From Candidatus Poseidoniales archaeon (GTDB lineage: Archaea > Thermoplasmatota > Poseidoniia > Poseidoniales > Poseidoniaceae), in the NCBI GenBank assembly GCA_003602415.1, contig QQSK01000013.1, positions 10,152 to 74,151 of the forward strand: a stretch of 64,000 bases of DNA, given 5' to 3'. The notes under the pieces were generated by a model. It searched no databases and was not told where the DNA came from. It saw only the letters and a program-made list of their open reading frames with translations. How positions within the stretch are numbered: position 1 is the first letter of the stretch; each line of letters begins with the position of its first letter. Below, one piece after another: positions 4,886 to 29,699 of the stretch. Made by a program: the position numbers and the translations under genes.

Positions 4886-5227
4886 ATGATGCAACGCATT
4901 CTGGCCGGATTCTCAGCCCTACCAGGAGCTGACCAAGCATACATCATTTCTCGTAGAGATGGCTTGGTTGCTTCAGTTGGAAAGAGAGGTCGTGCACCGA
5001 TGGTTGAACATGCCACCCAAATAATCCAAGCGATGGAAAGACTTGGACAAAACAAAGCCGTTGGAAGAGGGTTGGAGTTTTGGACAGAAGGAGAGGGAAT
5101 GCTTCTAGTAACTCGATTGAGCGAAGATGCAAGCCTGATAGTTTCTGGTAAGAAGGGTGGCAGGATAGCCAGGTGGCGACACGCCGTAGAATGCGATGTT
5201 GAAATGCTAAACTCGTTGATGAGGTGA
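4886..5227 (+). CDS. Roadblock/LC7 (MglB-like) domain protein
   Basis: It is 113 aa and carries the roadblock signature ...AYIISRRDGLVASVG... . Its stop overlaps the start of the next ORF by 4 nt (ATGA), indicating operon coupling. Confidence 0.55.
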   Translation: MMQRILAGFSALPGADQAYIISRRDGLVASVGKRGRAPMVEHATQIIQAMERLGQNKAVGRGLEFWTEGEGMLLVTRLSEDASLIVSGKKGGRIARWRHAVECDVEMLNSLMR

Positions 5228-8200
5228 CGGACATGTTCGATCTACCATATGGAATGCTAATTGATAACGAAATTGATGTCAGTGATGGCTCAATCATGCC
5301 ATTTGAACACGGTTCAATATCTACGTATCTTGGACGTAGGTCTACTGCGAGCGGACATAGAATCGTCAGAGCGGGCAGAGTCGTAGGTTGGGTTGCTGAA
5401 CCTGCTAAAGGCAAAGTTTTGCTTTGTGGTCTAGCTGCTAAGCAAAGACTCGAGGAATTAGAATCTGATTCACATCGCTTAACTGCTAGAGCATGGACTC
5501 AATCGTCATTAGGCTCCGTTGCTGAGATTATTCCTGAAGCATTTGAGCACGCTGCAGACTTGCGAGGACTGATTGGTTCTGGCGATTCATTGGAGCGTTT
5601 ACTTTCTCGAGATCTATCTGCTGTCTTGGCGAATCTGGTTGTTAGGCCGGAGGTACGTGGAGGGATTGCGGTTGATTCTGGAATGTTAATCGACGATGCA
5701 GGAGACCTACCCTCTAGTGCAGAATCCTTAGCGGCACAGGTTGGAGAAACCTTGGCTGGAAGAAAAGCGATGGCTAGCGACTTAGGATTATCCGGTGCAG
5801 GCCACTGGACACTACACACAGACAATGGAGCATTATTGTTGGCGGAAGCCGGCGATGTCGCACTAGCAATTTGGACAGAATCAGATGTCGACCACGGTCG
5901 ACTGATTAGCCAAATCGCTGCTATGATGGACGGACAAATCGATGCAATGGGGTCTAGAGGTGAAGCACTTACCGATGGCCATGTAGTTAGAGAAGGAAGA
6001 GGCGGAACCGATGCAATCATTTCCATGCTAACCACCGCTGTAGAAGAAGGATTGACCGGCCATTTGACGGCCGGCAAATCCTCCAAAGCAATTCGTGTTG
6101 CACTGGTTAAGGGTGTACCTGTGGCCATGCAAGCGCCTGGAAAAACAAAGATTGTCGAGGCGGTAAACTCACTTTGTGAATCTCGACGCGTTCTATCATT
6201 GCATAGACTGCCTGTTGGAACAATTCTTGGAACAGAATCAGGTAATGTTCCCGATTTCAATTTAGAAACCTTCTGTGAGGAATTATCTACAACAAGAACT
6301 CGTTCTGAATCCCGCCAAACTCTAATCAGACAAACTATGAATCAGATATATGGTTTTGAAATAGGTCTACAAAAACTCAAGAAAGAGCGTACTAGGTTCG
6401 AATTCGCAATTTCAGTAGCAACTCCTTCAACAGGTTTGACTACCGTGGATACATCCACAGGAATTGATGATGGATTAAGAAGAAAATTAGAGAAATCTGA
6501 AATTCAACTCTCAGATGCGAATCAAGAGATTGCTTCACTTCGTGTTGCCCTTGATTCAGCACAGAAAGCAGAAACTGCAGCTAAAGTCAATGCTAACGAA
6601 GCCAATAGGCATACTTCAGATATTCAAGATAAAATTGCAGCGTATAACAAAACAATCGACCAGTTACAACTCGATTTATCCGCAGCACAATCCAGTTCCG
6701 AGAATGCAGAGGCTCGTAGTGATAGGTTGTCAAAGAGAGTGAACGAGTTAGAGCACCAACTCAGTGAAAGAGCGGTTGAATTGGCTAGAATTCTTGGAGA
6801 TAGTAAAGCGAGTAATGAATTGTCTTCCAAGATAGAAGAAATGGCATCCAAGGAAGCAGCATTATCCAGTGATATCGATTCACATTCTGCGACCTTGTCG
6901 AGTATTCGTTCAAGGATAGATGATGATCAACGCCGTCAGAGAATGATAGAAGAACAGGTAGAAGCTGCTAGAGACAAACATCGTCGTGCTCAAGGAGAAT
7001 TATCAGAATTGGAATCCAAGATCAATGACTCTCAATTGCGTCTAAAGCAAATTGAAGCGGAATCAAGAGTTGCTCGAGAGCGAACTCAAGAAGACCGAAT
7101 TAGGCTGAACGAACAAGAAAACCGTGCTGCTAACATCCAATCCGAGATGCGTGAATTAATGGATGAAAGAAGGCAAGTTCTGAAAGAACTAGGTGATTTA
7201 GGTGCTAGAAGAGGACAAGCTGAAGCTGAATTGTCGAACTTACTAGACCAAGCAGAAGCATTAGCATTCGCTCATGAAGAAGCGCTATCCGACATCAAAG
7301 AGGCAGAATTACTTCGCGCAAAATTATCTGAAGAACCCCTTGCTCAAGCATTGTTAGAAGATGGTGCTCAATTTGATGGACTAGGGCCAGTATTAGAACG
7401 CTTAGAACATGCTAGAACACTAGGATACTCGGTGTCATTGCTTGACCGTGCGGTAGAAAGAGCATTACAGGTCATTCAAGGATGCGTTGACCACGTTGCA
7501 ACAACGCCTAGACACCTATTATCGACAGAAGTAATGTCGTTATTGGAGAGACAGGTCCCACAAACTGCAGGAGCAGTTCGTGGATTAGCAAGATGGTCGG
7601 TTCAACAAAGACTCGAACATCAATTGGGTGAAACAGTAACTAATCTGGTTCTAGATTTAGAAAATCTTCTCGAAGATTACGACAGATCGATTACTATGCT
7701 TAGAAGAATCAGAAATGTTCTCGAGCAATTAGAGAAACTCGGCGCTCCTCCTGAACAGGTTCAGGCTTTGATGAACAATACAAGAAGACCTGAGTCTTTG
7801 CCGGTTCTTGCTCGCGAGACTCGTACTCTGATTCAGAAGGCTCTGGATGACATCCACCTAGAAGCAGACATGAGAGATGCAGGCTCTGCAGTCAAATTAG
7901 AAGCGACAACCAGCGCCCTCGAAGAACTTCTTACCCAATTAGATGCAAGTGGCTTTGTCAAGGGTGAAGTTCGTGGTGCGCTTTGGGATTTCAAGCGAGA
8001 AGGGATTCTACCTTTCGAGCGTGACTCTGTTCCTGCTGGAGAAAGAGAACCGGTCAATGATGCTGCAATAGAGCAAATGAAAGGCGAATTAATCGACGAG
8101 GAAGTTGCTGTTGCAGTTGAAGTTAGTGAAATTACTGAGGAATGGGAAGAATTGTCGACACCAGTGGACCAGGATGATAGTGAATCAGTATCTGAGGATG

Positions 8201-8358
8201 TATCGATCTCTCATAGTGATGAAAGAGCATCTCTAGAAGAAGAATTAGCTAGATTGGATGCTCGTTGGGAACGTCGAACCGACCCTGAAGAAATAACAGA
8301 ACTTTCAGATTCAACTCTTGACGAACTTGAAGATTCTCTAGATGGGATAGATCTCTGA
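5224..8358 (+). CDS. Large cytoplasmic protein with N-terminal roadblock/LC7-like domain(s), a long SMC-like coiled coil and an acidic C-terminus
   Basis: Residues ~130-240 (RGGIAVDSGMLIDDAGD...GALLLAEAGDVALAIWTESD) fit the roadblock fold. Residues ~420-720 have heptad periodicity and are rich in E/R/Q/L/A. No Walker A motif is present. The C-terminal 90 aa are strongly acidic and include EEWEEL. Confidence 0.5.
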   Translation: MTDMFDLPYGMLIDNEIDVSDGSIMPFEHGSISTYLGRRSTASGHRIVRAGRVVGWVAEPAKGKVLLCGLAAKQRLEELESDSHRLTARAWTQSSLGSVAEIIPEAFEHAADLRGLIGSGDSLERLLSRDLSAVLANLVVRPEVRGGIAVDSGMLIDDAGDLPSSAESLAAQVGETLAGRKAMASDLGLSGAGHWTLHTDNGALLLAEAGDVALAIWTESDVDHGRLISQIAAMMDGQIDAMGSRGEALTDGHVVREGRGGTDAIISMLTTAVEEGLTGHLTAGKSSKAIRVALVKGVPVAMQAPGKTKIVEAVNSLCESRRVLSLHRLPVGTILGTESGNVPDFNLETFCEELSTTRTRSESRQTLIRQTMNQIYGFEIGLQKLKKERTRFEFAISVATPSTGLTTVDTSTGIDDGLRRKLEKSEIQLSDANQEIASLRVALDSAQKAETAAKVNANEANRHTSDIQDKIAAYNKTIDQLQLDLSAAQSSSENAEARSDRLSKRVNELEHQLSERAVELARILGDSKASNELSSKIEEMASKEAALSSDIDSHSATLSSIRSRIDDDQRRQRMIEEQVEAARDKHRRAQGELSELESKINDSQLRLKQIEAESRVARERTQEDRIRLNEQENRAANIQSEMRELMDERRQVLKELGDLGARRGQAEAELSNLLDQAEALAFAHEEALSDIKEAELLRAKLSEEPLAQALLEDGAQFDGLGPVLERLEHARTLGYSVSLLDRAVERALQVIQGCVDHVATTPRHLLSTEVMSLLERQVPQTAGAVRGLARWSVQQRLEHQLGETVTNLVLDLENLLEDYDRSITMLRRIRNVLEQLEKLGAPPEQVQALMNNTRRPESLPVLARETRTLIQKALDDIHLEADMRDAGSAVKLEATTSALEELLTQLDASGFVKGEVRGALWDFKREGILPFERDSVPAGEREPVNDAAIEQMKGELIDEEVAVAVEVSEITEEWEELSTPVDQDDSESVSEDVSISHSDERASLEEELARLDARWERRTDPEEITELSDSTLDELEDSLDGIDL

Positions 8359-8367
8359 GGTGAATAT

Positions 8368-8568
8368 ATGAGTTCAGTCTATCCTTTGTGGATTGAAAAG
8401 ATGATTTTCTTAGTTTTGGTAGCATCATCAGTATACGCTGGTATCGAATTGCAAAATCATCTCACAGGAGCAATGCTTTGGTTGTCATGGGTATGTGGAT
8501 TGCCTTTGGTAGTTCTAGTCACTACTGAAGGAATTGGACGCATAGTCCAAAAAATCAACACAAGATAA
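8368..8568 (+). CDS. Small 2-TM membrane protein (hypothetical)
   Basis: It is 66 aa with two hydrophobic helices. It starts 10 nt after the preceding gene on the same strand. Confidence 0.3.
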   Translation: MSSVYPLWIEKMIFLVLVASSVYAGIELQNHLTGAMLWLSWVCGLPLVVLVTTEGIGRIVQKINTR

Positions 8569-9717
8569 TCATTCACGAGTAGTGAAAGAGGATTCGATAA
8601 GACCCCAGAATCTTTGCCACGGTACTACAAATCTTAGCAGTGCCATTATTCCAAGGAATAATAGAGCGGAAATCACTAATCCGTAGGTCAGAGTCAATTC
8701 GATTGATTCTCCTACTTGAGCAGCCCATTGTGAGCCCGTAATTCCACTTACCCAATCCAGTAAAACCGAATGGAACCCTAAAGCGATAGTCGTGGTTACT
8801 ACAGTCAGTGATAGGAAAATCGCAGTATGTCTTAGGTGTCCATTGAGAATGTTATCCATTTGTGCGACGTATTCAGGGTCCTTCTTGCAAGACTCAGGTA
8901 ATCTGTATGCATACTCCAACTGGCGAATAACTCCAAATGCAGACTCCTGGAAAACCATCATCAAACATGCGATTAGAATTAGAGAAATTTGTTCTGCGGT
9001 AACCAAACCGAAAACGGTAGGTTCTGAAACAATGATCTCAAGAGTTGTTAATTGACTTCCATAACTTCCCAATTGTGAACGGATAAGAGGGAATGTCAAA
9101 ATTGCGTGAACACCCAAGAATAGTAGTGTAAATCCGATAGACCATGCTACACCTCTTCGAGATAGTCCCCAGATACCCTTGGTTCCGGTGATAATTGGTA
9201 GTAGGTAGAATGTTAGAATGATGAATGAGAGCATCATCAACAATGGCCACTCTAGTAGTCGAAGGACATCATCACCTGGAGCACTCCATCCATCACTGAT
9301 TAGTTGCCATGCGTATCCGAAAACAAATCTTCCAGCTAGAATTAGAATCAAGGTAATGATGAATCCAAGTTTGACTCTTTGCTGTACCTTTGGGGTCTGG
9401 AAGGCCAATAATGCCATTGAACCACCAAGCCCCAATCCCAATGCCATAGGAACATAGAATCGAGCAAGACCTTCGCTTCCCCCTCCAGTTAACCAATCGC
9501 CAAGAGGCAACTCTGTTCCAAGTCCGGATTCGAGGGTGTCGAATAATTGAGTGTGGTCTATACTGCCGACAACATATGTTGAAACCACTTCTAAATACAT
9601 CCAAACCAATGCTAGGGTGGCAAGTACCTGTAATGTGACAATTTGCCATTGAACACGCAATTGGCGCAAGTGGAGCGAGCGTGCTCCTTCTCCTTGAGGT
9701 GTTACTTCTCCTGCCAT
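8569..9717 (-). CDS. Polytopic integral membrane protein of about 8 TM helices
   Basis: Hydrophobic helices occur throughout. It is the last gene of the co-directional DUF4350/DUF58 string, 9 nt from DUF58. Confidence 0.5.
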   Translation of the reverse strand: MAGEVTPQGEGARSLHLRQLRVQWQIVTLQVLATLALVWMYLEVVSTYVVGSIDHTQLFDTLESGLGTELPLGDWLTGGGSEGLARFYVPMALGLGLGGSMALLAFQTPKVQQRVKLGFIITLILILAGRFVFGYAWQLISDGWSAPGDDVLRLLEWPLLMMLSFIILTFYLLPIITGTKGIWGLSRRGVAWSIGFTLLFLGVHAILTFPLIRSQLGSYGSQLTTLEIIVSEPTVFGLVTAEQISLILIACLMMVFQESAFGVIRQLEYAYRLPESCKKDPEYVAQMDNILNGHLRHTAIFLSLTVVTTTIALGFHSVLLDWVSGITGSQWAAQVGESIELTLTYGLVISALLFLGIMALLRFVVPWQRFWGLIESSFTTRE

Positions 9718-9726
9718 GAAATCACC

Positions 9727-10980
9727 TCAATATCCTCTCACCTGTAGCAGGGCCTGTGATAGGTCCATGTCTGGCATCCAATCGATGACTTGACTTCCAA
9801 ATCCTGCTAGGGATGTCAGTCTGTTTTGTCTTTCAAGTTTCAAAACCTCGTAAGACATTCTTGGGATTCTACTGACCAGTCTCTCGAAGTCAATAGATGA
9901 TGGAGACAGTACAGTAACTTCGTGACCTCTTCCAACTAAATCCCTAATCGCTGAAGGAACAGTTCCATCTCCTTCACACGATGAGATGACGAATACAGGG
10001 CTTCCACGACTGAACCTTGCGGCTAAACTGTTGGTTACAGCTTGTAAAGGCATAGTTCCTCTTGGAGCAACCCCTGCAAGAGAAGATAAGATCTTGAAAT
10101 ACTGCTTATCTCCAGTATCAGGCGGTAAGAATGACAATTTTTCATCATAAATTGTTAGAGAGACCGAATCACGCCGCTTGATGAAGAAAGACGCGAGACT
10201 CGCTGCAGCCACAGTACCCATCTCTAACGGGTTCTTGAGAACTGTACCAATTCTTGCAATATCTCGACTATCTAGAATGATGTACAAATCAGTTACAGCA
10301 TCTCTACACTTCTCGTTAATCATCAAGTCCCCAGTTCTAGCAAATGCCTTCCAATTGATGTTCTTGAACGGGTCTCCTGGCACATATTCTCTTAGCGAAT
10401 AGAATTCTGTTCCAGGTCCAGGTGTTCTCAATGTGGTCGCACCAGTGTACATCTTAGCAGTTCTAGAACGGATGAACGCTTCTTCAACGTCACGAATCTG
10501 CGGGAAAATGATGATGTCGGAATGATGGTCAACATACATTTCATCAACAGAGAGATTGAATGTATTCCTATACCTAAGAGAAACAGGCCCTATCGAGTAA
10601 TGACCTCTTAGAGGACAGCGTAAGACATAGCGGATTCTAGCACTTTCTCCTGGCTTGAGATTGAGCCTCATTTGGTTGAGACCACTCCTCAACTTCATTT
10701 CGTGAGGAACGTTGTCATAAACTTCCAATTGCTGAGTTTTCCTTCTACTTCTATTGGTAACTAACAATTCAACGTAGAGGTCATCTCCCTTGTACAGGTT
10801 ATCTGCAGATAGAGTCCTCTGTACTTCGACATCACCATGCCCACTGACCCATGAGTTTACTACAATGAATGCGATAAATGCCAGACCTAGAATCATCATC
10901 TGATGGTTTGAAATCATCATACCTATGAGGATTAGAGCAATTCCTCCAGTGAATGTAAATGCTGCTTTACGTGTCCACAT
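9727..10980 (-). CDS. DUF58 family protein (vWA-like, associated with MoxR/Bat operons)
   Basis: It carries the DUF58 hallmark REYVPGDPFKNINWKAFARTGDLMINE (R-Y-xGD...I-W...AR). Two N-terminal TM helices are present. Confidence 0.65.
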   Translation of the reverse strand: MWTRKAAFTFTGGIALILIGMMISNHQMMILGLAFIAFIVVNSWVSGHGDVEVQRTLSADNLYKGDDLYVELLVTNRSRRKTQQLEVYDNVPHEMKLRSGLNQMRLNLKPGESARIRYVLRCPLRGHYSIGPVSLRYRNTFNLSVDEMYVDHHSDIIIFPQIRDVEEAFIRSRTAKMYTGATTLRTPGPGTEFYSLREYVPGDPFKNINWKAFARTGDLMINEKCRDAVTDLYIILDSRDIARIGTVLKNPLEMGTVAAASLASFFIKRRDSVSLTIYDEKLSFLPPDTGDKQYFKILSSLAGVAPRGTMPLQAVTNSLAARFSRGSPVFVISSCEGDGTVPSAIRDLVGRGHEVTVLSPSSIDFERLVSRIPRMSYEVLKLERQNRLTSLAGFGSQVIDWMPDMDLSQALLQVRGY

Positions 10981-10990
10981 CTAATTCACC

Positions 10991-12637
10991 TCATGTACGT
11001 CCCCAGACTTTTATTCGTTTCACGATAGCTACAGTCTGTTCTAAAGAATAATTCTTATTTTCAAATACGAACTTGACTAGTACTGGGTCATTGATCATGC
11101 CTTGCAATTCTCTAGCCGGTAAAGAGTCAAACTCTTCTCTAGTCAATCCATTTTGGTTTCTAACCTTAGAGAGGAAAACCTGTTTGATCTTGTTTGATTT
11201 TGCATAATACGTGTATCTATTAGCATCTCCAAATCCATAGTAAATGATACTGAAAACGTGCCTCCATGGCTCAGGGTCTTTCTTCTTGAGTAATACACCT
11301 TCAAATGCGATGAACAGAATCAGGAATAATAGTAGCATTGCCAATCCTTCACCAGTGAAGTAAACCAACAGGAAGTAAACGGTATTGTAGGATTCTGAAG
11401 CGATGCTAGGTTGGATATGGCGACTTTCATCAAAGATAACCATTGCATTAGGTGCAACACCGGGAACATCAACAGATTCACCATTTGCTTCAGGATTCAC
11501 CAAGGAATCAGCAATGTAGTCCATGGCCCATTTCCTGTTGTCGTTTCTAGGAATTGGCTTGTCTGCTTTGCCATATTTGCCATCGTTGTATGCTTCATAG
11601 TCATAGAGGGCATTGGTTAATGCAGAACCATCTGCGATGAAGGTAATCCTTCCACCATTGACGAAGTTACAATCTTGGGTGATACATACCTCGATTGAAA
11701 GGTTGAATTGACCCCAAAGGTCTGGAGTTTCGGAATTTTGTTCTGAACCAACCCATATTTCCCCATCACCGTTTACGTCAATCGTTGCTTCTGCTGAAGT
11801 AACGGCTCGAATCTGAGTTGCACCCATTCCAGTTTTTGCATTTTGAATGACATCAATTCCAGTAATGTTGTTCAGAAGAACTTGGTATGAAGCGTTATAC
11901 TGGATCTCTCCATCTTTCCAATGTTGTTCACATACACCTGAATTGGATTTTGAGACAGTTCTTCCATCATACAATTTGCAAATGTGAGCGCCATTGTCTT
12001 GTATATCCCAGCGACTATGGGTTTCAACTGTGCTTGTATCAATGCTTGTGCCATCCATGCCACAAGGAGATTCTTGAACACACATCCACACGAAATTGTA
12101 ATCCAATTCAGTTACGTAAACAGTATCAAACAATTGAACTCCTTTGAATCGAACTCCAAAAGCCTCAGCGATTGAAGACGAATATCCAAAGTCGTCCATG
12201 ACCAAAACGTCCCCTCCAGCAAATACGAATTCTTTGATGGCCTCGACTTCAGCAGGAGAATAACCATCTTCAGAAGCAAATGTTAGGAAACCATCGGATG
12301 AGAATTGAGGAATAGAAATGGTATCTCTTTCCACACCTGCAATGATGAATGTAGTATTCGCAGGGTCCTCGATATCAGCTAGTAGTAGTGGCGAAGAAAC
12401 CAGTGATTTAGTTTCAATTCCCATGTCGTTGATATCTTCACGGAAAGCAGACATATCATCCCAATCGCTCCCATAAGCCGATTGTCCGTCCTTGTTTCCA
12501 ATATTGATGACCTGTGATACCACTGTAGAAAGTAGCATCAAAAGAACAAACCAAAACGCAATTTGAAGACCTAGTCTTCGTTTGTTAAAGCGCGGTTTGT
12601 CGTCCAATTGAACACCCCTAGTACAAGATACAGACAA
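10991..12637 (-). CDS. DUF4350-like membrane protein (ThuA/GATase1-like fold)
   Basis: There is an N-terminal TM helix and a C-terminal TM helix. An extracytoplasmic stretch (...AEVEAIKEFVFAGGDVLVMDDFGYSSSIAEAFG...) matches the DUF4350 pattern. It sits 10 nt from DUF58. Confidence 0.5.
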   Translation of the reverse strand: MSVSCTRGVQLDDKPRFNKRRLGLQIAFWFVLLMLLSTVVSQVINIGNKDGQSAYGSDWDDMSAFREDINDMGIETKSLVSSPLLLADIEDPANTTFIIAGVERDTISIPQFSSDGFLTFASEDGYSPAEVEAIKEFVFAGGDVLVMDDFGYSSSIAEAFGVRFKGVQLFDTVYVTELDYNFVWMCVQESPCGMDGTSIDTSTVETHSRWDIQDNGAHICKLYDGRTVSKSNSGVCEQHWKDGEIQYNASYQVLLNNITGIDVIQNAKTGMGATQIRAVTSAEATIDVNGDGEIWVGSEQNSETPDLWGQFNLSIEVCITQDCNFVNGGRITFIADGSALTNALYDYEAYNDGKYGKADKPIPRNDNRKWAMDYIADSLVNPEANGESVDVPGVAPNAMVIFDESRHIQPSIASESYNTVYFLLVYFTGEGLAMLLLFLILFIAFEGVLLKKKDPEPWRHVFSIIYYGFGDANRYTYYAKSNKIKQVFLSKVRNQNGLTREEFDSLPARELQGMINDPVLVKFVFENKNYSLEQTVAIVKRIKVWGRT

Positions 12638-12689
12638 CCCACGTTATCAATTGGGTTTAGAAGGTTGTGGGCATATGATAAGAAATTGC

Positions 12690-12929
12690 TCAACGCCTTA
12701 ACACTATTTTCGAGCCAATTTTTGAAATTTCTTGGGCTGGGACATGACAAAAACCGTCCTCAGTGGGCCATGGAAGTTTGCTGATGTCGATCTCGGATAC
12801 AACATCAACCAAGATTTCAGTAATTTCACCACTTCTTGTGTCAATGACTATGTCCATCAGATGACCGAATAATTCGCCATTGTTGTCAACAACATCACGC
12901 TTGAGGAACTCACCGCTGAAACTCGACAT
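12690..12929 (-). CDS. PRC-barrel domain protein
   Basis: It is 79 aa, with LKRDVVDNNGELFGHLMDIVIDTRSGEITEILV typical of a PRC barrel. Confidence 0.5.
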   Translation of the reverse strand: MSSFSGEFLKRDVVDNNGELFGHLMDIVIDTRSGEITEILVDVVSEIDISKLPWPTEDGFCHVPAQEISKIGSKIVLRR

Positions 12930-12994
12930 GTTTGGCTCCTCCTGTCATTTAATGCAACTTCTTGTTTCACTTCAATTAACCGGCTACTGTCAGA

Positions 12995-15226
12995 TCACAT
13001 CGATTCCATTCCGTAACCAGTATCTCTGGTCCGTTTGATATTTGATAGACCAGAAGTTAGTCTCTCTTCCATCTTTGAGTAATACTCCAACATATCAGGA
13101 GTTACAGTTGGGCGAACTCTGGTAATCGCATCTTCAAAGTGTCCTTTTGTGACCTTCTTCTTTCCGGCTCTCATTGCAATCAGTGCGGCTTCTCTGCACA
13201 CCGCTTCAATATCTGCGCCAGTGAAACCTTCCATGCCTGTGAGGATATCTTTCATTGAGAAAGTGGATAATGGCATGCCAGCCGAATGGATTTCCATAAT
13301 CGCTTCTCTTGCTGGACGGTCTGGAGGCGGAACGTGTAGAACCCTTTCGAATCTACCACTTCTCAATAGAGCAGGGTCAATCATTTCTGGGCGATTTGTG
13401 GCTGCCACAATAATTACTCCGTCCAAGCTTTCCACACCATCCATACTTGCTAATAATTGATTGACAACTCTGTTAGCAACATCCGAACCTCCGCTTTGAG
13501 AGTTAGATGAACGCATTCCTGCGATAGATTCGAATTCATCAAGGAAGATGATTGAAGGTGAAGATTGCTTGGCCTTCTTGAAAATCTCCCTAATCGCTTT
13601 TTCAGATTCTCCAACCCATTTCGAGATTAACTCCGGTCCCTTGATTGAGATGAAATTGGCCTTTGCTTCATTGGCAATTGCTTTTGCAAGCAGAGTTTTT
13701 CCAGTACCAGGTGCTCCGAATAGAACAATTCCTCGTGGTGGTTTAATTCCAAAGTGGTCAAACAATTCTGGTTTGGTTAACGGCCATTCAACACTTTCCT
13801 TCAGCCTGTCCTTTATCTCGCTTAATCCACCAACACTTTCCCATGAAACATCGGGGATTTCGACGTAAATCTCTCTAAGGGCACTAGGTTCTATTTCTCT
13901 AATTGCAAGACGGAAGTCTTCCATACGGACTTCCATCTTTTCTAGAACTTCAGGAGGAATTGTATCTTCTTCCAAGTCAATTTCAGGCAGGTATCTGCGT
14001 AGAGCCTTCATTGCAGACTCTCTAACCAATGCAGCAAGATCAGCACCTACGAATCCGTATGAATTCTCCAGCACCCAATCTACATCGAAATCATCAGCAA
14101 TAGGCATCTGCCTAGTATGAACATCTAAGATTTCTTTGCGCCCTTCTCTGTCAGGAACTCCGATTTCGATTTCTCTATCGAATCTACCCGGTCTTCTCAA
14201 AGCAGGGTCCATGGCATCCCTTCTGTTAGTGGCTCCAATGACAATGACGTTGTCTCTGCCTTGCATTCCATCCATTAGTGTAAGCATCTGTGCTACGACT
14301 CTTCTTTCAACTTCGCCACTTACATCCTCTCTCTTTGGACAGATAGAGTCAATCTCGTCTACGAAGACGATTGCAGGAGCATTATTTGCGGCTTCATCGA
14401 AGATTTCTCTTAGCTGCTTCTCAGATTCTCCATAATATTTGGAAATGATTTCAGGACCGTTAATTGAGGTAAAATGTGCGTTGGTTTCAGTTGCCACCGC
14501 TTTAGCAATCATCGTTTTACCAGTACCAGGGGGTCCGTGAAGTAAAACTCCCTTTGGCGGGTCAATTCCTAGTCGCCTGAATAACTCAGGATGCTTCAAT
14601 GGTAACTCAATCATCTCTCGAACCTTCAATAATTGACTACCGATTCCTCCGATATCTTCGTAGGTTATGCCTTGAGATTGGCCCACATCATCATCATCGA
14701 TCGCTTCATCTTTGATCACAATGTCTGTGTCTGAATTAACTTGAACGATTCCTTTTGGAGTTGTTTGTAAAACAGCGAACGGCAATGCTTCAGCGAACAA
14801 GGTCATTCCTGGAATGAAAATTCTGTCTCCGGCTACTACCGGCCTTTTGTTTAATCCACGTCGAGCAAATCCTTCGATTCCTGGCCCGAATTTTACTTTC
14901 TGCTTGTTTGCCATTACGGGTGAAAGCACCAATTTTGTACAAATTTTCGCATCAACTTTGGAGACAGTAACTTTGTCACCTAGGCTCACACCAGCATTCT
15001 TTCTAATGATACCATCAACACGAATGATGTCCATCTTTGCATCTTCTGGGCGACTTCTCCAATAGATGGCGGCTGTTGAGCGCTTGTCGCCTTTGATTTC
15101 GATAATGTCGCCTGGCTTTAGCTCCAATCCATTTTCTCCACTAATGCGAGCTCTGCCGTGACCTACGTCACTTGGTATAGCCTTTGAGACTTTCAAAGAG
15201 ATTGATTCAGTATCATCATCAGACAT
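12995..15226 (-). CDS. cdc48: Cdc48/VCP-like AAA+ ATPase
   Basis: An N-domain is followed by two AAA modules, with Walker A motifs GPPGTGKT and GAPGTGKT. Walker B (DEID/DEFE) and SRH regions are present. The length is 743 aa. Confidence 0.85.
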
Positions 15227-15363
15227 GGGTTGCCCCCTCCGGTAATTTTACTTGACAGCAGCCATTCTTTAATCCATGGTATTTTTGCAAGTACAGAACT
15301 CAGATTAACAGAGAGTTACTATTCAAGGAAAGCATTCATGTTCTTTATCCTAGACGGAAGGTC

Positions 15364-16992
15364 ATGACGCACGTTTTAGAGGTCGGCCTAGAGTTTATGG
15401 AAAGCAATAATCCCCATTCCCTTCCTAAGGTAAAGGGTTACAATATCATCAATGGACAACTCAAGTCCTCATCGGATGGTTCTACACTGGTTAGTATCAA
15501 CCCAGCAATTCTTTCAGATGAAATCGGTGAATTCCCTATGTCAACCAGGGAAGATGTTCACGAAGCAATCGCTGCAGCAAGAATGGCTTTGTCTGGGTGG
15601 GCTTCTACTCCTGCTCCTACTCGCGGTCAGATAATTGGGAACATGGGAAGACTGCTGATGGAGCACAAGGATGAACTTGTGCGCCTACAGGCCCGTGAGA
15701 TTGGTAAGACTGTGAAAGAATGTGGAGGAGAAATCCAAGAAGCGATCGACACATGTCTCTTTTTCCAATCAGAAGGTCGCAGATTGTACGGCCAGACCGT
15801 TAATTCAGAATTACCGGACAAGGAATTGTTCACTTACCGTAGACCTCTTGGTGTGTGTGGAATTATCAACGCCTGTAATTTCCCATCAGCTGTTCCTTTC
15901 TGGAAAATGATCCCTGCAATTATTTGTGGTAATACCTGTGTCTGGAAATCACCTCAAGATTCTCCCCTTCTATCATTTGCTTTGGCTAGAATTATGCATC
16001 AAGCAGGATTGCCTAATGGTGTTATCAATTTAGTTCACGGTAAAGGAAGCGGAGCGGGACAATATATTGTAGATGCTGTCGATGAAGGTTTGATCAACAA
16101 AATTTCATTCACAGGCAGTACAGAAGTCGGCAAAGCAATTGGAGAAGTCTGTGGAAGAAACTTGGTTTCATGCAGTTTGGAACTAGGCGGAAAGAATCCA
16201 CTTGTAGTAATGCCATCCGCAAACATCGATAACGCGGTTGAAGGTGCATATTGGGGTGGCTTTGGAACAGCAGGTCAACGCTGTACCAGCTTGGGTAATT
16301 TGATTCTTCACGAGGAGATCTATGATGAATTCATGGAGAAGTTCATGATTAGAGTCAAGTCTACCAGAATCGGCGACTCTCTACACAACGAGAATGTCCT
16401 GTATGGCTCTATGCTTTCTGAAAAGTATGCAAAAGATTTCCTGAAGGGTATTGAAATGATTGAGGCGGATGGTGCAACCAAGGAATGGGGTAATGGCCGA
16501 ATCACTTCAGGAAATACTCCTGAGAATTTCATGGGAACTCCAGAAGAAGGAGTATTCATGTGGCCACACGTTTATTCTGGAGTAACTGAAGACATGAATT
16601 GCTTCCATGAGGAAGTATTTGGTCCTGCAATTACCATTGTTAAGGCAAAGGATTTCGATCACGCACTTCATCTAGCCAATGCATCTCCTTACGGTCTATC
16701 CAGTGCAATTTACACAAATGACCGCCTTGAAGCATACCGCTTCAAGACAGGAATTAAAGCGGGAATGACCGGCATTAACAACTCTACAACTGGAGCGGAA
16801 GCACACCTTCCATTTGGTGGTGTCAAGGGTAGCGGAAATGGAACCCGCGAATCTGGAATTTGGGTTATTGAAGCATACTCCTATTGGCATGCTGTAAACG
16901 ATGAATTATCTGGCAAATTACAACTCGCTCAGATGGATGTCGATGAAATTGAGATGGTTGAAGCAGAAGTAGACTACTCCTCATTGGCCTGA
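15364..16992 (+). CDS. NAD(P)-dependent aldehyde dehydrogenase family protein
   Basis: It has the ALDH catalytic motifs ELGGKNP and GQRCTS and the Rossmann motif GSTEVG. The start could instead be the internal Met at MESNNP. Confidence 0.75.
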   Translation: MTHVLEVGLEFMESNNPHSLPKVKGYNIINGQLKSSSDGSTLVSINPAILSDEIGEFPMSTREDVHEAIAAARMALSGWASTPAPTRGQIIGNMGRLLMEHKDELVRLQAREIGKTVKECGGEIQEAIDTCLFFQSEGRRLYGQTVNSELPDKELFTYRRPLGVCGIINACNFPSAVPFWKMIPAIICGNTCVWKSPQDSPLLSFALARIMHQAGLPNGVINLVHGKGSGAGQYIVDAVDEGLINKISFTGSTEVGKAIGEVCGRNLVSCSLELGGKNPLVVMPSANIDNAVEGAYWGGFGTAGQRCTSLGNLILHEEIYDEFMEKFMIRVKSTRIGDSLHNENVLYGSMLSEKYAKDFLKGIEMIEADGATKEWGNGRITSGNTPENFMGTPEEGVFMWPHVYSGVTEDMNCFHEEVFGPAITIVKAKDFDHALHLANASPYGLSSAIYTNDRLEAYRFKTGIKAGMTGINNSTTGAEAHLPFGGVKGSGNGTRESGIWVIEAYSYWHAVNDELSGKLQLAQMDVDEIEMVEAEVDYSSLA

Positions 16993-17041
16993 ACAAGAGC
17001 CGAACAGGTCAAAGACCCCTTGGTCACTGGGCCAGTTTATC

Positions 17042-17058
17042 CGCCCCCATAGGGGGCG
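17042..17058. promoter_or_regulatory. GC-clamp triloop hairpin CGCCCCC-ATA-GGGGGCG immediately upstream of the sdhC start
   Basis: It is a perfect 7-bp G/C stem with a 3-nt loop. It lies 3-15 nt upstream of the candidate starts. Confidence 0.3.
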
Positions 17059-17061
17059 CGG

Positions 17062-17886
17062 TTGGTGTACTTAATGGGCCAAGGACTCAAACTTCCAATG
17101 CTTAACGGAATGGGCCGTACTGATAGAATAGACAAGTGGTGGGCTCAACCAGCAGTAATGGCTCTTGGATTATTTTTAGCCATCCTGTGGACCGTTTGGA
17201 GAGTTGTATTCTTCTCTGACCATATCGATTACAATGTCAATGGAGCACATGTGATATCTCCTATGTTTTCTCCAAACGTGTTGGAGTGGGATATGTTCTC
17301 TGGATGGGATCATCCATCCTGGGTTAATGCGGCAGTTCTGATACTGTGGATTCCATTTTCGTTCAGGGGTACATGCTATTACATGCGCCGAGTCTACTAT
17401 CGAACTTTCTTCGCTAGCCCGGTGGCTTGTTGGGTCGATGAGCCAGAGATTAACAAGAAGATTGGATACAAAGGCGAAAAGCGATTATTCATCGTTAACA
17501 ATCTTCACCGATACTTCCTGTACATGGTGATTCCAATTCTACTCATCAAATGGTGGGATATCACTCACACAATGTCATTCTCCAACGACGGATATGGCAT
17601 ATCTGGAGGAACAATCATCTTGACACTAGAAGCGGTTTGTCTAACATTCTATGTGACTTCGTGTCACGCTTTGAGACATTTAGCTGGCGGTATGTTGGAT
17701 AGATGGGCAAGCGGGATTTCAAAGGTTAGAGGGGCATTATTCTCTAAGATTAGTATCATCAACAAAGACCATGGTTTTTGGTTCTGGATTTCACTTACGC
17801 TTGTTTTCGTAGGAGATGCTTGGACCATCGCATGTTCTAAAGGAATAATCAATGACTTCAGCTTAGTCTTAATCGGAGGTGTCTGA
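17062..17886 (+). CDS. sdhC: Putative succinate dehydrogenase membrane anchor or cytochrome b subunit
   Basis: It is a 5-TM protein with several conserved His residues and sits immediately upstream of sdhA/sdhB, in the Bacillus-type sdhCAB order. The call rests on context and hydropathy. The start is ambiguous between TTG at 17062 and ATG at 17074. Confidence 0.4.
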   Translation: MVYLMGQGLKLPMLNGMGRTDRIDKWWAQPAVMALGLFLAILWTVWRVVFFSDHIDYNVNGAHVISPMFSPNVLEWDMFSGWDHPSWVNAAVLILWIPFSFRGTCYYMRRVYYRTFFASPVACWVDEPEINKKIGYKGEKRLFIVNNLHRYFLYMVIPILLIKWWDITHTMSFSNDGYGISGGTIILTLEAVCLTFYVTSCHALRHLAGGMLDRWASGISKVRGALFSKISIINKDHGFWFWISLTLVFVGDAWTIACSKGIINDFSLVLIGGV

Positions 17887-19741
17887 AATGTCTGAGAATT
17901 ATACTTCTTACGAATACGATGTTGTGGTTATCGGTGCTGGAGGCGCTGGACTTAGGGCTGCTATCGAGGCTGCTCGTAGTGGTGCAAAAACTGCAATCAT
18001 CACCAAGTCTCTACTTGGTAAAGCACATACTGTAATGGCAGAAGGTGGTTGTGCAGCAGCACTCCAAAACGCAGACCCTCGTGATGGTTGGAAAGTTCAT
18101 TTCCATGACACAATGAAAGGAAGCAAATGGCTTGCTAACTGGAGAATGGCAGAATTCCATGCAAAGGAAGCACCAGACCGTGTCCGTGAATTAGAACAAT
18201 GGGGTGCTGTATTCGATAGAACTCCTAAGAATGTAATCAATCAAAGAAATTTTGGAGGTCACACATTCCCTAGACTTGCTCACGTTGGAGACGCTACAGG
18301 TCTAGAAATTATCAGAACACTTCAGGAAAGAGGAATCCATGAAGGAATAGATATGTTCACAGAATACACAGTTCGCAGTTTGTTAAAGGAAGGCGACCGT
18401 GTAACCGGATGTGTAGCATATACTAGAGTGGACGGAGATTTCCATGCATTCTCAGCAAAATCCGTAGTTCTAGCAACCGGCGGAATTACTCGATGTTGGT
18501 CTGTTTGTTCAGGTTCTTGGGAATATACCGGCGACGGCCATGCTCTAGCACTTTGGGCAGGAGCTGAACTCAGAGATATGGAATTCGTGCAATTCCATCC
18601 TACTGGGATGGTTTGGCCACCTTCTGTAAGAGGAATTCTGGTTACTGAAGGTGTACGTGGTGAAGGAGGACGATTGACTAATTCTGAAGGTAACAGATTC
18701 ATGTTTGATTATGTTCCTGAAATGTTCCAAGGCGACCATGCCGAGACAGAAGAGGAATCGGATCAATGGGTCGAAGAAGTAGTCTCTGGCAAATTAGCCA
18801 CAGTTCGCAGACCTCCCGAATTGCTTACTCGTGACGTTGTTGCCAAGGCAATCAACAGTGAAGTCAAAGCTGGTAGAGGTAGCCCTCATGGTGGCGCATT
18901 CCTAGATATATCTCACAGAGGAGAAGCCGCAATTTTGGCTAAATTACCTTCAATGCATCACCAATTCAAGGAATTAGCGGGCGTTGATATCGCCAAGGAG
19001 CCAATGGAAGTTGGCCCTACTGCTCACTATGTGATGGGCGGGGTTAGAGTAGATGCTGAAACCCAAGAAACTACCGTGCCAGGCTTGTATGCTTGCGGTG
19101 AAGTCGCAAGTGGTTTGCACGGTGCAAACAGACTTGGTGGTAACTCACTTTCAGACCTAATTGTATTCGGAAAGAGAGCCGGAGAGCACGCATCTAAGCG
19201 CGCTACAGACCTTGCTCAACCTAGTATTGACGATGGTCAAGTTCAGGCAGCAATCAAGGAAATGCTTGCTCCTCTAGAGAGAGGAGATGGAGAGAATCCA
19301 GGATTAATCTATGATGAAATGCGAGATATGATGCAAGAAAAGGTAGGCATCATTCGTGTCAAAGGAGAACTTGAATCAGCACTTGAGGATTTGAACGACT
19401 TTTCAAACAGAGAACAGAACTGTTTCCCTGGTACAAGCCGAAAATACAACTCAGGATGGCACCAAGCTCTTGATTTGAAGAACATGGTCGACATTTCCAG
19501 AGTTGCCACAATGGCGGCTCTAGCTCGAGAAGAGAGTCGTGGAGGGCACACTCGTGATGATTTCCCTGGCCACGAAGAAGAATTCTGGGGTAAGAATCTC
19601 AACATTTGTTGGATGGAAGATGGAGAGATAAAAATCCGTCAAGAAGAAATCGAAGAGATGCGAGACGACCTACAAGATGCGATCAAAGAAGTAAAGACAA
19701 TGATTGCTGAAAGGGCTGCACAACAAGGAGGTGGCAACTGA
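17879..19741 (+). CDS. sdhA: Succinate dehydrogenase/fumarate reductase flavoprotein subunit
   Basis: It has the FAD-binding motif VVVIGAGGAGLRAA, the active-site HYVMGG motif, and HPTG. The likely true start is ATG 17888, which is preceded by GGAGGT. Confidence 0.85.
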   Translation: MSEMSENYTSYEYDVVVIGAGGAGLRAAIEAARSGAKTAIITKSLLGKAHTVMAEGGCAAALQNADPRDGWKVHFHDTMKGSKWLANWRMAEFHAKEAPDRVRELEQWGAVFDRTPKNVINQRNFGGHTFPRLAHVGDATGLEIIRTLQERGIHEGIDMFTEYTVRSLLKEGDRVTGCVAYTRVDGDFHAFSAKSVVLATGGITRCWSVCSGSWEYTGDGHALALWAGAELRDMEFVQFHPTGMVWPPSVRGILVTEGVRGEGGRLTNSEGNRFMFDYVPEMFQGDHAETEEESDQWVEEVVSGKLATVRRPPELLTRDVVAKAINSEVKAGRGSPHGGAFLDISHRGEAAILAKLPSMHHQFKELAGVDIAKEPMEVGPTAHYVMGGVRVDAETQETTVPGLYACGEVASGLHGANRLGGNSLSDLIVFGKRAGEHASKRATDLAQPSIDDGQVQAAIKEMLAPLERGDGENPGLIYDEMRDMMQEKVGIIRVKGELESALEDLNDFSNREQNCFPGTSRKYNSGWHQALDLKNMVDISRVATMAALAREESRGGHTRDDFPGHEEEFWGKNLNICWMEDGEIKIRQEEIEEMRDDLQDAIKEVKTMIAERAAQQGGGN

Positions 19742-20508
19742 TGTCACTCAAAGGTAAGAATCAGAAGTTCAAGGTCCTTCGTGGCGAAGGGGAAGATGCT
19801 AAACTCGAAGAGTACGATCTAGAATTGGACGAAGGAATGGTCGTTCTAGATTGCATGCATAGGATTCAGTACGAACAAGAGCCTGATTTGGCGGTTCGTT
19901 GGAATTGTAAAGCAGGTAAGTGCGGTTCGTGTAGCGCAGAAATTAACGGAAGACCTCGTTTGATGTGTATGACTAGAATGTCAGATGTTGTTGCTGAAAC
20001 ACCAGAAGGCCAACCTATTGAAGTTAGACCGATGAAAACCTTCCCTCACATCAAAGACTTGGTTACTGACGTATCATGGAACTATGATGTCGCTCAGAAG
20101 ATTAAGCCTATCAAGGGGCCTGACGAACCAAACTGGGAATTCAATCAGCACGAAGCACATCGTGTTCAACAATTCAGAGAATGTATCGAATGTTTCCTTT
20201 GCGTAAATACATGTCACGTATTGAGAGACCACCAATTATTCGACGATTTCGCAGGACCACGTAACTTGGTTAGACTTGCACAATACGAAATGCACCCTCT
20301 TGATGAGGAAGACAGACTTCCAGAAATTAAGAAGGAGTTCGGAGTTGAATACTGTAACATCACTCGCTGCTGTACCGAAGTATGTCCTGCGGGAATTCAA
20401 ATTACTGACGATGCGATTATTCAATTGAAAGAAAGAGTAGTAGACAGATACTACGACCCACTTCAGAGAATCTGGAGAGCAATAACTGGAAAGAAGCCAA
20501 GAATGTGA
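19741..20508 (+). CDS. sdhB: Succinate dehydrogenase iron-sulfur subunit
   Basis: It has a 2Fe-2S motif (CKAGKCGSCSAEINGRPRLMC), a 4Fe-4S motif (CIECFLCVNTC) and a 3Fe-4S motif (CTEVCPAGI). Its start overlaps the sdhA stop by 1 nt. Confidence 0.85.
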   Translation: MSLKGKNQKFKVLRGEGEDAKLEEYDLELDEGMVVLDCMHRIQYEQEPDLAVRWNCKAGKCGSCSAEINGRPRLMCMTRMSDVVAETPEGQPIEVRPMKTFPHIKDLVTDVSWNYDVAQKIKPIKGPDEPNWEFNQHEAHRVQQFRECIECFLCVNTCHVLRDHQLFDDFAGPRNLVRLAQYEMHPLDEEDRLPEIKKEFGVEYCNITRCCTEVCPAGIQITDDAIIQLKERVVDRYYDPLQRIWRAITGKKPRM

Positions 20509-22001
20509 ATCAACCACTATTGGTGATTTTAATGTCCGAGGAAGTAGAGTCGTTCGATGATGATTCTATGTTTAGTGATTTATTCAAGCCAGGAAATAAT
20601 TTGCTTGGGTATGTATTGATTCTAACTTCATTGATTCTATGGTTTGAAGGAAATAATCTGCGTTCATTGAACATATTACTGGTGATCATTGCTGTGTTTT
20701 GGCTTGTGGTCAAGCTATTGGCAAAGACCAAATTATTTTCCAAAAAAGAAACCAATTTCGAGAAACCTAGCATCAAAAGAAAATTGAAATTATTGTCATT
20801 TATTCTAGTCATATTGGTTGCATTTTTGGTTTTGTCTACCACTTTTGCCCTCAACTTTGTAGATGACTTTGGAGGTGAACCATCTTCTCATGATTCTCCT
20901 AATTTTAATGATGGAACATTTGAGAATACAGAATCTACCATCATGCAATCTGATGAAGTATCAACTTGGGATTTGTTAGGCGACTACCTAGTCAGCGATG
21001 ATTGTAGGTCTCCCAATGAAGAATTACCTTCAGAGGAATTCAAATTAATTGATTTGGAGGATGGTGAGATTAGTGTTACTTGGTTTGGCCATTCAACCAT
21101 TTTACTACGCTCGAATAATGTCACTATAATCACTGATCCTGTGTTCGGAGATTCCGGAGCAGGACCCTTATCATTAGGGCCTAGTCCATTTCCTTTTGAG
21201 CATTCATACAGTTTAGATGATTTACCAGAAATCGATTATGTATTCATTTCACACGACCATTACGACCATTTGGATATGAACACGGTCAAGGAACTCGAGG
21301 ATTCGTTGTTCTTTGTCCCATTAGGAATCAAAAACCATCTTTTAGAATGGGATATCGAAGAAGAAAAAATTCAGGAATTAGATTGGTATGATGAAGTTGA
21401 CATTTCTCAAGATTTACATGCAGCTTTAACTCCAGCACGTCATTTTAGTGGAAGGGGGATTTCCGATAGTCATTCTACACTGTGGGGTTCTTGGGTATTC
21501 AATTTCCATGAAACGAGTATATACTTCAGTGGAGATACTGGTTATACTGATGAGTTTACAAATATCAGTGAAGCATTCGGTCCATTCGATATTGCATTCT
21601 TAGATTCAGGGCAGTATAATTTAGCATGGCAACAAGTCCACATGCTTCCTGATGAGGTCGTTCAAGCAGGAATAGATTTGAATGCATCATTAATCCTGCC
21701 AATTCATATTTCGAAGTATGAATTAGCGTTACACCACTGGTATGAGCCGATGGAATTGGTCTCTACACTTGGCGCAGAGAGGAATGTATCTGTGGCAACC
21801 CCGCTTCTTGGAAGCAGTTTCATTATTGGAAAGGAGATACCTGATGACCCATGGTGGAGAGGCATTTCAGAATGCACTGACCCATTCTTAGATGAATATC
21901 CTGCACTTGAATACGCGTTGTTCTATACTGGATTTGTAGGTGTTATGTGGATTGTAATACCTCGATTCAAGAAAACTAACCAGCCCTTCGAAGAAGAGTG
22001 A
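20505..22001 (+). CDS. Membrane-anchored MBL-fold metallo-hydrolase (NAPE-PLD/Lactamase_B_2-like)
   Basis: An N-terminal TM region is followed by the MBL motif HDHYDHLD. It overlaps the sdhB stop. An alternative start is ATG 20532. Confidence 0.55.
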   Translation: MNQPLLVILMSEEVESFDDDSMFSDLFKPGNNLLGYVLILTSLILWFEGNNLRSLNILLVIIAVFWLVVKLLAKTKLFSKKETNFEKPSIKRKLKLLSFILVILVAFLVLSTTFALNFVDDFGGEPSSHDSPNFNDGTFENTESTIMQSDEVSTWDLLGDYLVSDDCRSPNEELPSEEFKLIDLEDGEISVTWFGHSTILLRSNNVTIITDPVFGDSGAGPLSLGPSPFPFEHSYSLDDLPEIDYVFISHDHYDHLDMNTVKELEDSLFFVPLGIKNHLLEWDIEEEKIQELDWYDEVDISQDLHAALTPARHFSGRGISDSHSTLWGSWVFNFHETSIYFSGDTGYTDEFTNISEAFGPFDIAFLDSGQYNLAWQQVHMLPDEVVQAGIDLNASLILPIHISKYELALHHWYEPMELVSTLGAERNVSVATPLLGSSFIIGKEIPDDPWWRGISECTDPFLDEYPALEYALFYTGFVGVMWIVIPRFKKTNQPFEEE

Positions 22002-28946: not shown

Positions 28947-29063
28947 ATGTCTTGGGAGACATTATTACACAAAGTCACTTCGATTAGAAAATCTATTGAA
29001 AAATATGCATTTTTGGCAATTTTCGTCAATGTGTATATGAAGGACGGCCCCCCCTGCCGAAAC

Positions 29064-29690: not shown

Positions 29691-29699
29691 GGTGTTTGA

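Follow-up and report, generated by a model that had tools for sequence, protein, structure and literature searches.

A MoxR-less DUF4350-DUF58-membrane protein cassette beside a Cdc48-PRC-barrel gene pair in Marine Group II archaea

The stretch of 64,000 nt analysed here (contig QQSK01000013.1, positions 10,152 to 74,151, assembly GCA_003602415.1 of a Candidatus Poseidoniales archaeon), referred to below as the window, carries on its minus strand five co-directional genes, encoding in order of transcription a Cdc48-type ATPase, a PRC-barrel protein, a DUF4350 protein, a DUF58 protein and a polytopic membrane protein. A sequence-only reading had taken this string for a Bat/MoxR-like module without MoxR, in which Cdc48 is either a coincidental neighbour or a substitute for MoxR. 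Comparison with loci from Marine Group II (MGII), other Thermoplasmatota and haloarchaeal plasmids points to the former: the last three genes are probably a MoxR-less paralogue, named cassette B, of a Thermoplasmatota cassette that contains MoxR, with its own promoter and beside a separate Cdc48-PRC pair. The features of the locus, in window coordinates, are as follows.

8569-9717, minus strand: membrane protein, 382 aa, about 8 transmembrane (TM) segments; last cassette component
9727-10980, minus strand: DUF58 protein, 417 aa; PF01882
10991-12637 as first listed, minus strand: DUF4350 protein, 548 aa from a TTG; PF14258
10991..12607, minus strand: DUF4350 protein with its revised, most likely start at TTG 12607, 538 aa
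12690-12929, minus strand: small stand-alone PRC-barrel protein, 79 aa; PF05239; paired with Cdc48
12995-15226, minus strand: Cdc48/VAT-type double-ring AAA+ ATPase, 743 aa
12654-12668, minus strand: promoter-like box ACAACCTTCTAAACC, conserved, non-coding, BRE/TATA-like
12685-12691, minus strand: second conserved box GAGCA[AT]T, overlapping the PRC stop codon here
8549-8554, minus strand: T6 run, 15 nt past the membrane-protein stop; possible archaeal oligo-T terminator

All five open reading frames (ORFs) were verified on the minus strand, and with the starts as first listed the gaps are 65 nt from Cdc48 to PRC, 52 nt from PRC to DUF4350, 10 nt from DUF4350 to DUF58 and 9 nt from DUF58 to the membrane protein, as the sequence-only reading had given them. 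The exact window proteins recur on many marine metagenome contigs. Hidden Markov model matches to both of the proposed families lay above the gathering cut-offs, with the DUF58 protein matching PF01882 over residues 196-347 (E 2.3e-18, 66.6 bits, cut-off 23.4) and the 548-aa protein indeed matching DUF4350 (PF14258; E 8.7e-9, 36.3 bits, cut-off 30.4). Neither Pfam nor NCBIfam gave a match for the 382-aa membrane protein, whose sequence contains 7-8 hydrophobic segments. The proposed absence of MoxR in cis was borne out across the 64-kb window, where a Pfam scan of most ORFs of at least 120 aa gave no AAA_3 match and tblastn of two outgroup MoxR proteins against the six frames gave none at E <= 0.01.

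In the DUF4350 protein a TM anchor at the N-terminus is followed by a large GldG/IFT52-like domain (DUF4350), a second TM segment and a conserved tail of ~100 aa; its sequence matches to IFT52 were only marginal (E about 0.1). Several other MGII lineages have an ATG at the position homologous to TTG 12607, with a GAGGTGA-type Shine-Dalgarno 6-8 nt before it, and in the window an AGGGGTG Shine-Dalgarno precedes this TTG. Judged by these sequence signals, TTG 12607 is most likely the real start (538 aa), and the PRC-DUF4350 spacer would therefore measure 82 nt rather than 52. The 515-aa ATG start chosen by gene callers was rejected, as it would truncate the N-terminal TM helix.

DUF4350 and DUF58 were said to flank a MoxR gene as a rule, and this was the case in six of seven outgroup Thermoplasmatota contexts, each inspected over the available sequence up to 10 kb on either side. 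Loci L096, L097, L099, L100 and L102 carry DUF4350, MoxR (AAA_3), DUF58 and a membrane protein in this order, with the gene at the DUF4350 position of L097 lacking a recorded Pfam match, and L105, on a short contig, carries DUF4350, MoxR, DUF58 and a downstream protein. The seventh locus, L098 from Thermoplasmata, has DUF58 and a membrane protein only. L099 represents Marine Group III, judged by the names of its cluster members. In the first five loci a giant protein of 1200-2000 aa lies upstream (with DUF4129 in two of them), and the polytopic protein after DUF58 measures 277-459 aa. No Cdc48 gene was found near any of the seven loci within the sequence available. The MoxR position of these cassettes corresponds to the 10-nt gap between DUF4350 and DUF58 in the window.

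The three window genes are homologous to those of the MoxR-containing cassette of Thermoplasmatota and MGII, in the same order and orientation, and the proteins share the TM architecture, the DUF4350 tail motif and a D-x-R in place of the DUF58 MIDAS. The window DUF58 is pairwise 35-44% identical to that of the MGII cassette described below, of Marine Group III and of other orthologues, and 32% identical to the L098 type. In a full-length alignment, DUF4350 and its outgroup orthologues have a DESRH motif and the tail motif DPExWxHxFD in common. For the third gene, hhalign linked the 382-aa protein to the proteins downstream of DUF58 in the outgroups with 95.7% probability (E 9.7e-9), and the membrane protein of the MGII MoxR cassette to that same outgroup profile with 95.6% (E 1.2e-8); the common motifs are E-x6-R and ES[IV]E-x4-[YI]G. 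The window differs from the Thermoplasmatota cassette in lacking MoxR, in lacking the upstream giant and in its position downstream of Cdc48-PRC. No match to the giant DUF4129-type protein was found in the window with five outgroup giants as tblastn queries, and the two ~1700-aa giants that the window does encode have no similarity to those of the outgroup cassettes.

MGII archaea also have a cassette with MoxR, named cassette A. A metagenome scan with P0122, a DUF58 protein 42% identical to that of the window, recovered 80 marine loci whose DUF58 is ~40% identical to the window's. In all 78 loci whose contig extends far enough, MoxR directly precedes DUF58, and DUF4350-like sequence follows beyond MoxR in almost all loci with enough upstream sequence. 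On the 227-kb contig of locus L152, an AAA_3 protein (213 bits) lies between the DUF4350-like and DUF58 genes, followed by the membrane protein and a convergent aroC; a 320-aa protein without a Pfam match, and no giant, is directly upstream. The DUF4350-like protein of L152 matched an alignment of DUF4350 proteins, the window's among them, with 100% probability (hhalign, E 3e-40), and the exact DUF58 sequence of L152 and several of its neighbours carry the label Candidatus Thalassarchaeaceae or Poseidoniales. As for its surroundings in MGII (2394-7109 of L152), molybdenum cofactor and FAD subunits that resemble xanthine dehydrogenase lie ahead of cassette A, and convergent genes of the shikimate pathway (aroC, shikimate kinase and DHQS II) come after it.

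Both cassettes occur together in SIMO Bin 19-2, one MGII metagenome-assembled genome (MAG; Damashek 2021, PMC9723583, Table S3). Its cassette B reads Cdc48 (best hit MG2_1601), a small ORF, a 546-aa protein, DUF58 (MG2_1604, arCOG02742) and a 402-aa protein, and its cassette A, on a separate contig, reads a 533-aa protein (weak PF09822), MoxR (MG2_0574, K03924), DUF58 (MG2_0575, arCOG02742), a 312-aa protein and convergent aroC (Damashek 2021, PMC9723583). These correspond to MG2_1601-1604 and MG2_0574/0575 of the Iverson genome. In addition, 'moxR; MoxR-like ATPase' is an MGII core gene, present in 156/158 and 92/92 MAGs in six gene clusters (Tully 2019, PMC6336850, Supplementary Data 10), and the supplements of Rinke 2019 hold no MoxR or DUF58 entries. 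The sequence-only reading had expected that its proposal would fail if MoxR were found elsewhere in the genome and the Cdc48 adjacency were not conserved; MoxR was found elsewhere in MGII, and the adjacency is nonetheless conserved. In a search with the outgroup-cassette MoxR profile, the best 120 matches were all taken up by closer Thermoplasmatota and Marine Group III sequences, so that the search had no reach into MGII. One protein labelled 'Candidatus Poseidoniales archaeon', HIM86677.1, was considered as an MGII MoxR. The representative of its 90%-identity cluster lies on a 5-kb contig and is 88% identical to the L099 MoxR of Marine Group III type, and the protein was set aside as either mis-binned or of that type.

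Comparison of the surroundings of cassette B drew on 80 loci from GTDB genomes, almost all of them under the labels Poseidoniaceae, Poseidoniales or unclassified archaea. Where the contig suffices, these share one syntenic block of SDH, ALDH, Cdc48-PRC-DUF4350-DUF58-membrane protein, an SMC-like protein and TtuA, and Thalassarchaeaceae (MGIIb) have the same block with a Cdc48-PRC gap of 8 nt. The proposed check on conservation of the Cdc48 adjacency thus came out positive across the whole MGII order. In 85 MGII loci the two gaps within the cassette are 0-13 nt and 1-27 nt, and the PRC-DUF4350 spacer exceeds the others in both length and variability, at 51-158 nt in all but one. The T6 run downstream of the window membrane protein is not kept in other MGII loci and is weak evidence for a terminator. 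The full MGII cassette was also seen in L026 (NZFX01000057.1) and L042 (PBRN01000106.1), with DUF58 99% and 92% identical, in MAGs (GTDB representatives) titled 'Phycisphaerae bacterium' and 'Pseudobdellovibrionaceae bacterium'; these are probably archaeal contamination of bacterial bins.

The ATPase upstream is a canonical Cdc48, matching TIGR01243 with 965 bits (cut-off 803) and containing CDC48_N, CDC48_2 and two AAA domains; its match to Thermoplasma acidophilum VAT (PDB 5G4F; 855 bits over residues 7-721) spans the N-domain, D1 and D2. Its C-terminus (window 12995-13030, minus strand) reads ...GYGMESM, with the terminal ESM kept in most MGII loci shown; on this sequence the penultimate tyrosine is absent, so there is no obvious motif of the HbYX type, which serves proteasome docking. 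The neighbouring PRC-barrel protein matched PF05239 (E 3.6e-8, 33.7 bits, cut-off 21.2), and among PDB entries it matched the archaeal PRC-barrel proteins 8QZO and 8ONW best, though weakly (E 0.03-0.08). With an ORF finder that accepts ATG only, 77 of 85 MGII loci gave an ORF of ~79 aa at the place of PRC; tblastn found a PRC homologue in seven of the other eight, and none in L085. The Cdc48-PRC gap is 1-72 nt in nearly all MGII loci. Within this spacer (window 12930-12994, minus strand), a motif of roughly CCGRYNNNTTGAWGKG, for example AGCCGGTTAATTGAAGTG or CGACGCATTGATG, recurs across Poseidoniaceae loci.

Cdc48-PRC is a known recurrent archaeal neighbourhood that is independent of DUF58. 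Many archaeal PRC-barrel genes adjoin Cdc48 genes, the Haloferax CdpB proteins are the only PRC-barrel proteins shown to act in cell division (FtsZ/SepF-based), and not every stand-alone PRC-barrel protein acts in division (Zhao et al. 2023, bioRxiv 10.1101/2023.03.28.534520). The window resembles this pair in its small stand-alone PRC-barrel gene directly beside a Cdc48 family ATPase gene, and the pair differs from the five-gene string in having no reported tie to DUF58 or DUF4350. 'VCP, CDC48' forms essentially one cluster in 152/158 and 87/92 MGII MAGs (Tully 2019, PMC6336850, Supplementary Data 10). Cdc48 is probably an upstream neighbour that lies outside the cassette.

Between the two units lies the ACAACCTTCTAAACC box, which occurs once in the window. 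Its core CCTTCTAAA was present in 80/80 distinct Poseidoniaceae upstream regions, from loci whose DUF4350 proteins are themselves only ~63% identical, and the box has diverged in MGIIb. The distance from CCTTCTAAA to the start codon is 54-61 nt, mostly 55-59, in the 49 regions with an assignable start. Because of this 55-59-nt spacing, the box is read as an archaeal BRE/TATA element followed by a short leader with a Shine-Dalgarno, and it looks like the promoter element of the DUF4350-DUF58-membrane protein operon. The second box, GAGCA[AT]T, lies upstream of CCTTCTAAA in 63/80 regions, independent of the position of the PRC stop. As a sign of co-regulation, CCTTCTAAA was also sought upstream of cassette A, with no consistent occurrence there. 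An ACAACC...GGTTGT hairpin in the PRC-DUF4350 spacer was rejected as a candidate element, its pairing being lost in L024 and L036. Oligo-T runs were counted as a proxy for terminators, scans for sigma-70 promoters and intrinsic terminators not being applicable to archaea, and T5-T7 runs were found in the PRC-DUF4350 spacer of some lineages only.

In field metatranscriptomes, two samples of low depth gave signal. Coverage of Cdc48 was 0.22 and 0.41 and that of the cassette B genes 0-0.11, with DUF58 and the membrane protein at zero in one sample, so that Cdc48 exceeded those cassette B genes that were covered at all by a factor of 3-8. At the same low depth, cassette A MoxR had the highest coverage, 1.7 and 3.0. 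The difference between Cdc48 and cassette B is only suggestive of separate transcription units.

Several observations weigh against cassette B as an independent paralogue. All MGII loci examined, from either family, have Cdc48, PRC and cassette B as same-strand neighbours, and in SIMO Bin 19-2 the upstream Cdc48-PRC adjacency is retained where the downstream flank has been altered. Most MGII loci have an oligo-T run in neither spacer, so that transcription may read through from Cdc48, and the promoter role of the ACAACCTTCTAAACC box is itself deduced from sequence. The Cdc48 adjacency and the loss of MoxR in cis coincide in one lineage, as a replacement predicts, in what is a single event. The evidence for cassette A comes from MGII genomes and loci other than the window's own, and service by its MoxR in trans is argued by analogy. 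In the neighbour-joining tree of DUF58, cassettes A and B separate with 100% support each, and the deep nodes of this paralogue tree, which would date the split, have bootstrap values of 13-57; cassette B may have arisen by duplication with MoxR loss, as an older paralogue, or by transfer.

Some of these observations are what one would expect had Cdc48, possibly with PRC as its adaptor, taken over the MoxR role, making the five genes one functional and transcriptional unit. Order-wide adjacency of the five genes on one strand in all MGII loci with enough flank, spacers mostly free of oligo-T runs, and an adjacency that appears with the cis absence of MoxR in the same lineage and in 0/7 outgroup loci would all fit a Cdc48 that is co-transcribed with cassette B and acts on, assembles or extracts its membrane complex. 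Against this, MoxR belongs to the MGII core genes and has a complete paralogous cassette around it, Cdc48 has canonical domains and is the only VAT homologue in the core, and the Cdc48-PRC pair is common in archaea without this cassette alongside. The adjacency carries little weight because the unrelated flanks ALDH, SDH and TtuA are equally conserved, so that it reflects background synteny; moreover, the conserved promoter-like box separates the two units and coverage drops 3-8-fold downstream of Cdc48. It is also general knowledge that VWA/MIDAS partners belong to the AAA+ clade of MoxR, chelatase, midasin and dynein type; partnership with them is not a trait of classic-clade Cdc48, which recruits substrates via its N-domain. 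The substitution raised by the sequence-only reading is accordingly improbable, both as a functional take-over and as a shared transcript with a PRC adaptor.

The DUF58 protein bears on whether cassette B uses any AAA+ partner. Its AlphaFold2 model (pLDDT 79.8) shows a TM hairpin at the N-terminus together with a beta-sandwich of Ig-like fold and an alpha/beta domain that resembles VWA. Foldseek returned the VWA domains of CMG2, Rpn10, MDN1-MIDAS and CLCA1 (target TM-scores ~0.4-0.65), and for the Ig-like part TRAP-beta and complement MG domains. The canonical MIDAS signature DxSxS...T...D is not found in the VWA-like domain, where the position reads D237-S-R239-D, and D237 and R239 are invariant in 24 DUF58 orthologues, MoxR-linked ones included. 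All 36 invariant columns are common to the window protein and the MoxR-linked orthologues. Across the MGII order DUF58 is 78-100% identical, with 78% between the two MGII families; in the same loci identity is 89% for DUF58, 66% for the membrane protein, 63% for DUF4350 and about 41% for PRC. The conservation of DUF58 equals that of Cdc48 and is far above that of its operon partners. Such unusual conservation suggests several conserved partners.

A library-wide search with DUF58 found relatives at 30-42% identity, among them single-chain DUF4350-DUF58 fusions of ~730-758 aa in other lineages (P0194, P0203, P0231, P0256 and P0270), in which no ATPase domain lies between the two parts. A fusion of DUF58 with the membrane protein was also sought, and the C-terminal extension of the candidate P0251 (799 aa) has no BLASTP similarity to the 382-aa protein. 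The existence of the DUF4350-DUF58 fusions argues strongly that these two proteins work together. It also speaks against the view that DUF4350, DUF58 and the membrane protein form a chance string without functional link, for which nothing speaks beyond a general caution about the high synteny of MGII. The three families keep their order in cassette A as well as in Marine Group III and other Thermoplasmatota, and gaps of 0-27 nt separate the genes in all MGII loci. Because of the fusions and of a gene order that recurs across orders, a chance string is effectively refuted and can be regarded as highly improbable.

Relatives of the module in other systems were then considered. Bat-type operons consist of MoxR, DUF58 and BatA-E, of which BatA/BatB are VWA and BatC/BatE TPR proteins. 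The window resembles the Bat/aerotolerance operons of Bacteroides and Leptospira in its TM-anchored DUF58 with a VWA-like domain in a membrane-associated operon, and differs in lacking BatA/BatB VWA proteins, TPR-type BatC/BatE and MoxR in cis; Bat operons, in turn, have neither DUF4350 nor the 8-TM protein among their components. Among the ORFs neighbouring DUF58 there was no VWA_2, TPR or AAA_3 match. The label 'Bat-type' proposed earlier does not fit a locus that has no BatA-E (VWA/TPR) genes.

Closer in some respects are haloarchaeal plasmid triads of MoxR, DUF58 and transglutaminase/DUF4129 (TgpA-type), whose DUF58 belongs to the same subfamily (24-29% identity by tblastn). As in the window, DUF58 is followed by a polytopic membrane protein (DUF7519); the difference is that DUF4129 or transglutaminase together with DUF7269 replaces DUF4350. 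Two of these plasmid cassettes, L094 and L095, read DUF4129-DUF7269-DUF58-DUF7519 and have neither MoxR nor Cdc48 within 8 kb, so absence of MoxR in cis is not unique to MGII. In haloarchaeal L103 and L104 a convergent MoxR directly follows the cassette. Near four haloarchaeal plasmid cassettes, two of them MoxR-less, no Cdc48 was found within 6-10 kb where the contig allows.

The main competitor of cassette B as a MoxR-served paralogue is that it works without any AAA+ partner, as a structural or regulatory paralogue of cassette A in which MoxR became dispensable and was then lost; an example would be an alternative membrane complex for which remodelling is no longer required. The MoxR-less plasmid cassettes L094 and L095, the pairing of DUF58 with a membrane protein alone in L098, a VWA-like domain without the DxSxS MIDAS, and DUF4350-DUF58 fusions without an intervening ATPase domain are all compatible with this. 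The loss of the MIDAS is, however, uninformative on independence from an ATPase, the D-x-R being invariant in MoxR-linked orthologues as well. The cassette B DUF58 retains every residue that is invariant in those orthologues and is unusually conserved, and the convergent MoxR genes of L103/L104 show that absence in cis need not mean a lost partnership. A partner-free cassette is thus unlikely, yet it deserves more credit than a Cdc48 substitution.

For a MoxR-less paralogue with its own promoter, the following arrangement is proposed. DUF4350, DUF58 and the 8-TM protein would form one membrane complex, in which DUF4350 is predicted to present its large domain outside the cell and its conserved ~100-aa tail inside. 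The TM hairpin would anchor DUF58, and on that topology its Ig-like and MIDAS-less VWA-like domains would lie in the cytoplasm; the polytopic protein would complete the membrane part. Cassette B is probably transcribed from the promoter-like box between PRC and DUF4350. The Cdc48-PRC pair would have come to lie beside cassette B in the MGII ancestor, and regional synteny would have kept the adjacency. MoxR-clade ATPases are known to work with VWA/MIDAS partners, as in RavA-ViaA, CbbQ-CbbO, NorQ-NorD, BchI-BchD and midasin. Should DUF58 still depend on an AAA+ ATPase for its VWA-like domain, such pairings would make the cassette A MoxR, working in trans, the likeliest and most economical candidate.

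MGII are among the most abundant archaea of the surface ocean, and cassette B is present in every MGII genome region sampled. The DUF4350/MoxR/DUF58 neighbourhood is widespread in bacteria and archaea and its function is poorly understood. Two parallel cassettes in one genome, with and without MoxR, constitute a natural experiment, and comparison of A with B should separate the surfaces that serve the ATPase from those that serve the membrane complex. A take-over by Cdc48, if true, would mean a classic-clade AAA+ unfoldase doing the job of MoxR. The locus is also a caution that conserved adjacency does not equal functional coupling in a lineage whose neighbourhoods are syntenic as a whole. The result is an incremental, comparative one and does not reveal the role of the module.

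Some further features were observed around the cassettes. Convergent to cassette B, window 5224-8358 (plus strand) encodes a coiled-coil protein of 1044 aa that lacks a Pfam domain and weakly resembles SMC/Rad50, together with a 113-aa partner (4886-5227, plus strand). The pair is kept in the GTDB loci that reach that far; in SIMO Bin 19-2 no gene is called in the 370-nt gap at its position. The two ~1700-aa giants mentioned above lie at 23829-28946 (minus strand) and 35440-40476 (plus strand), with PA14 and laminin-G-like domains in one and CARDB in the other. In L102 the region just downstream of the outgroup cassette (12753-21248) looks like a defence island, containing a restriction-modification system of type I and a DarTG-like pair of DarT and Macro genes. 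In the window, 28935-30548 (plus strand) encodes a Macro-domain protein directly followed by a DAC (diadenylate cyclase) domain protein, and a DAC gene is also found near the outgroup cassette in L096.

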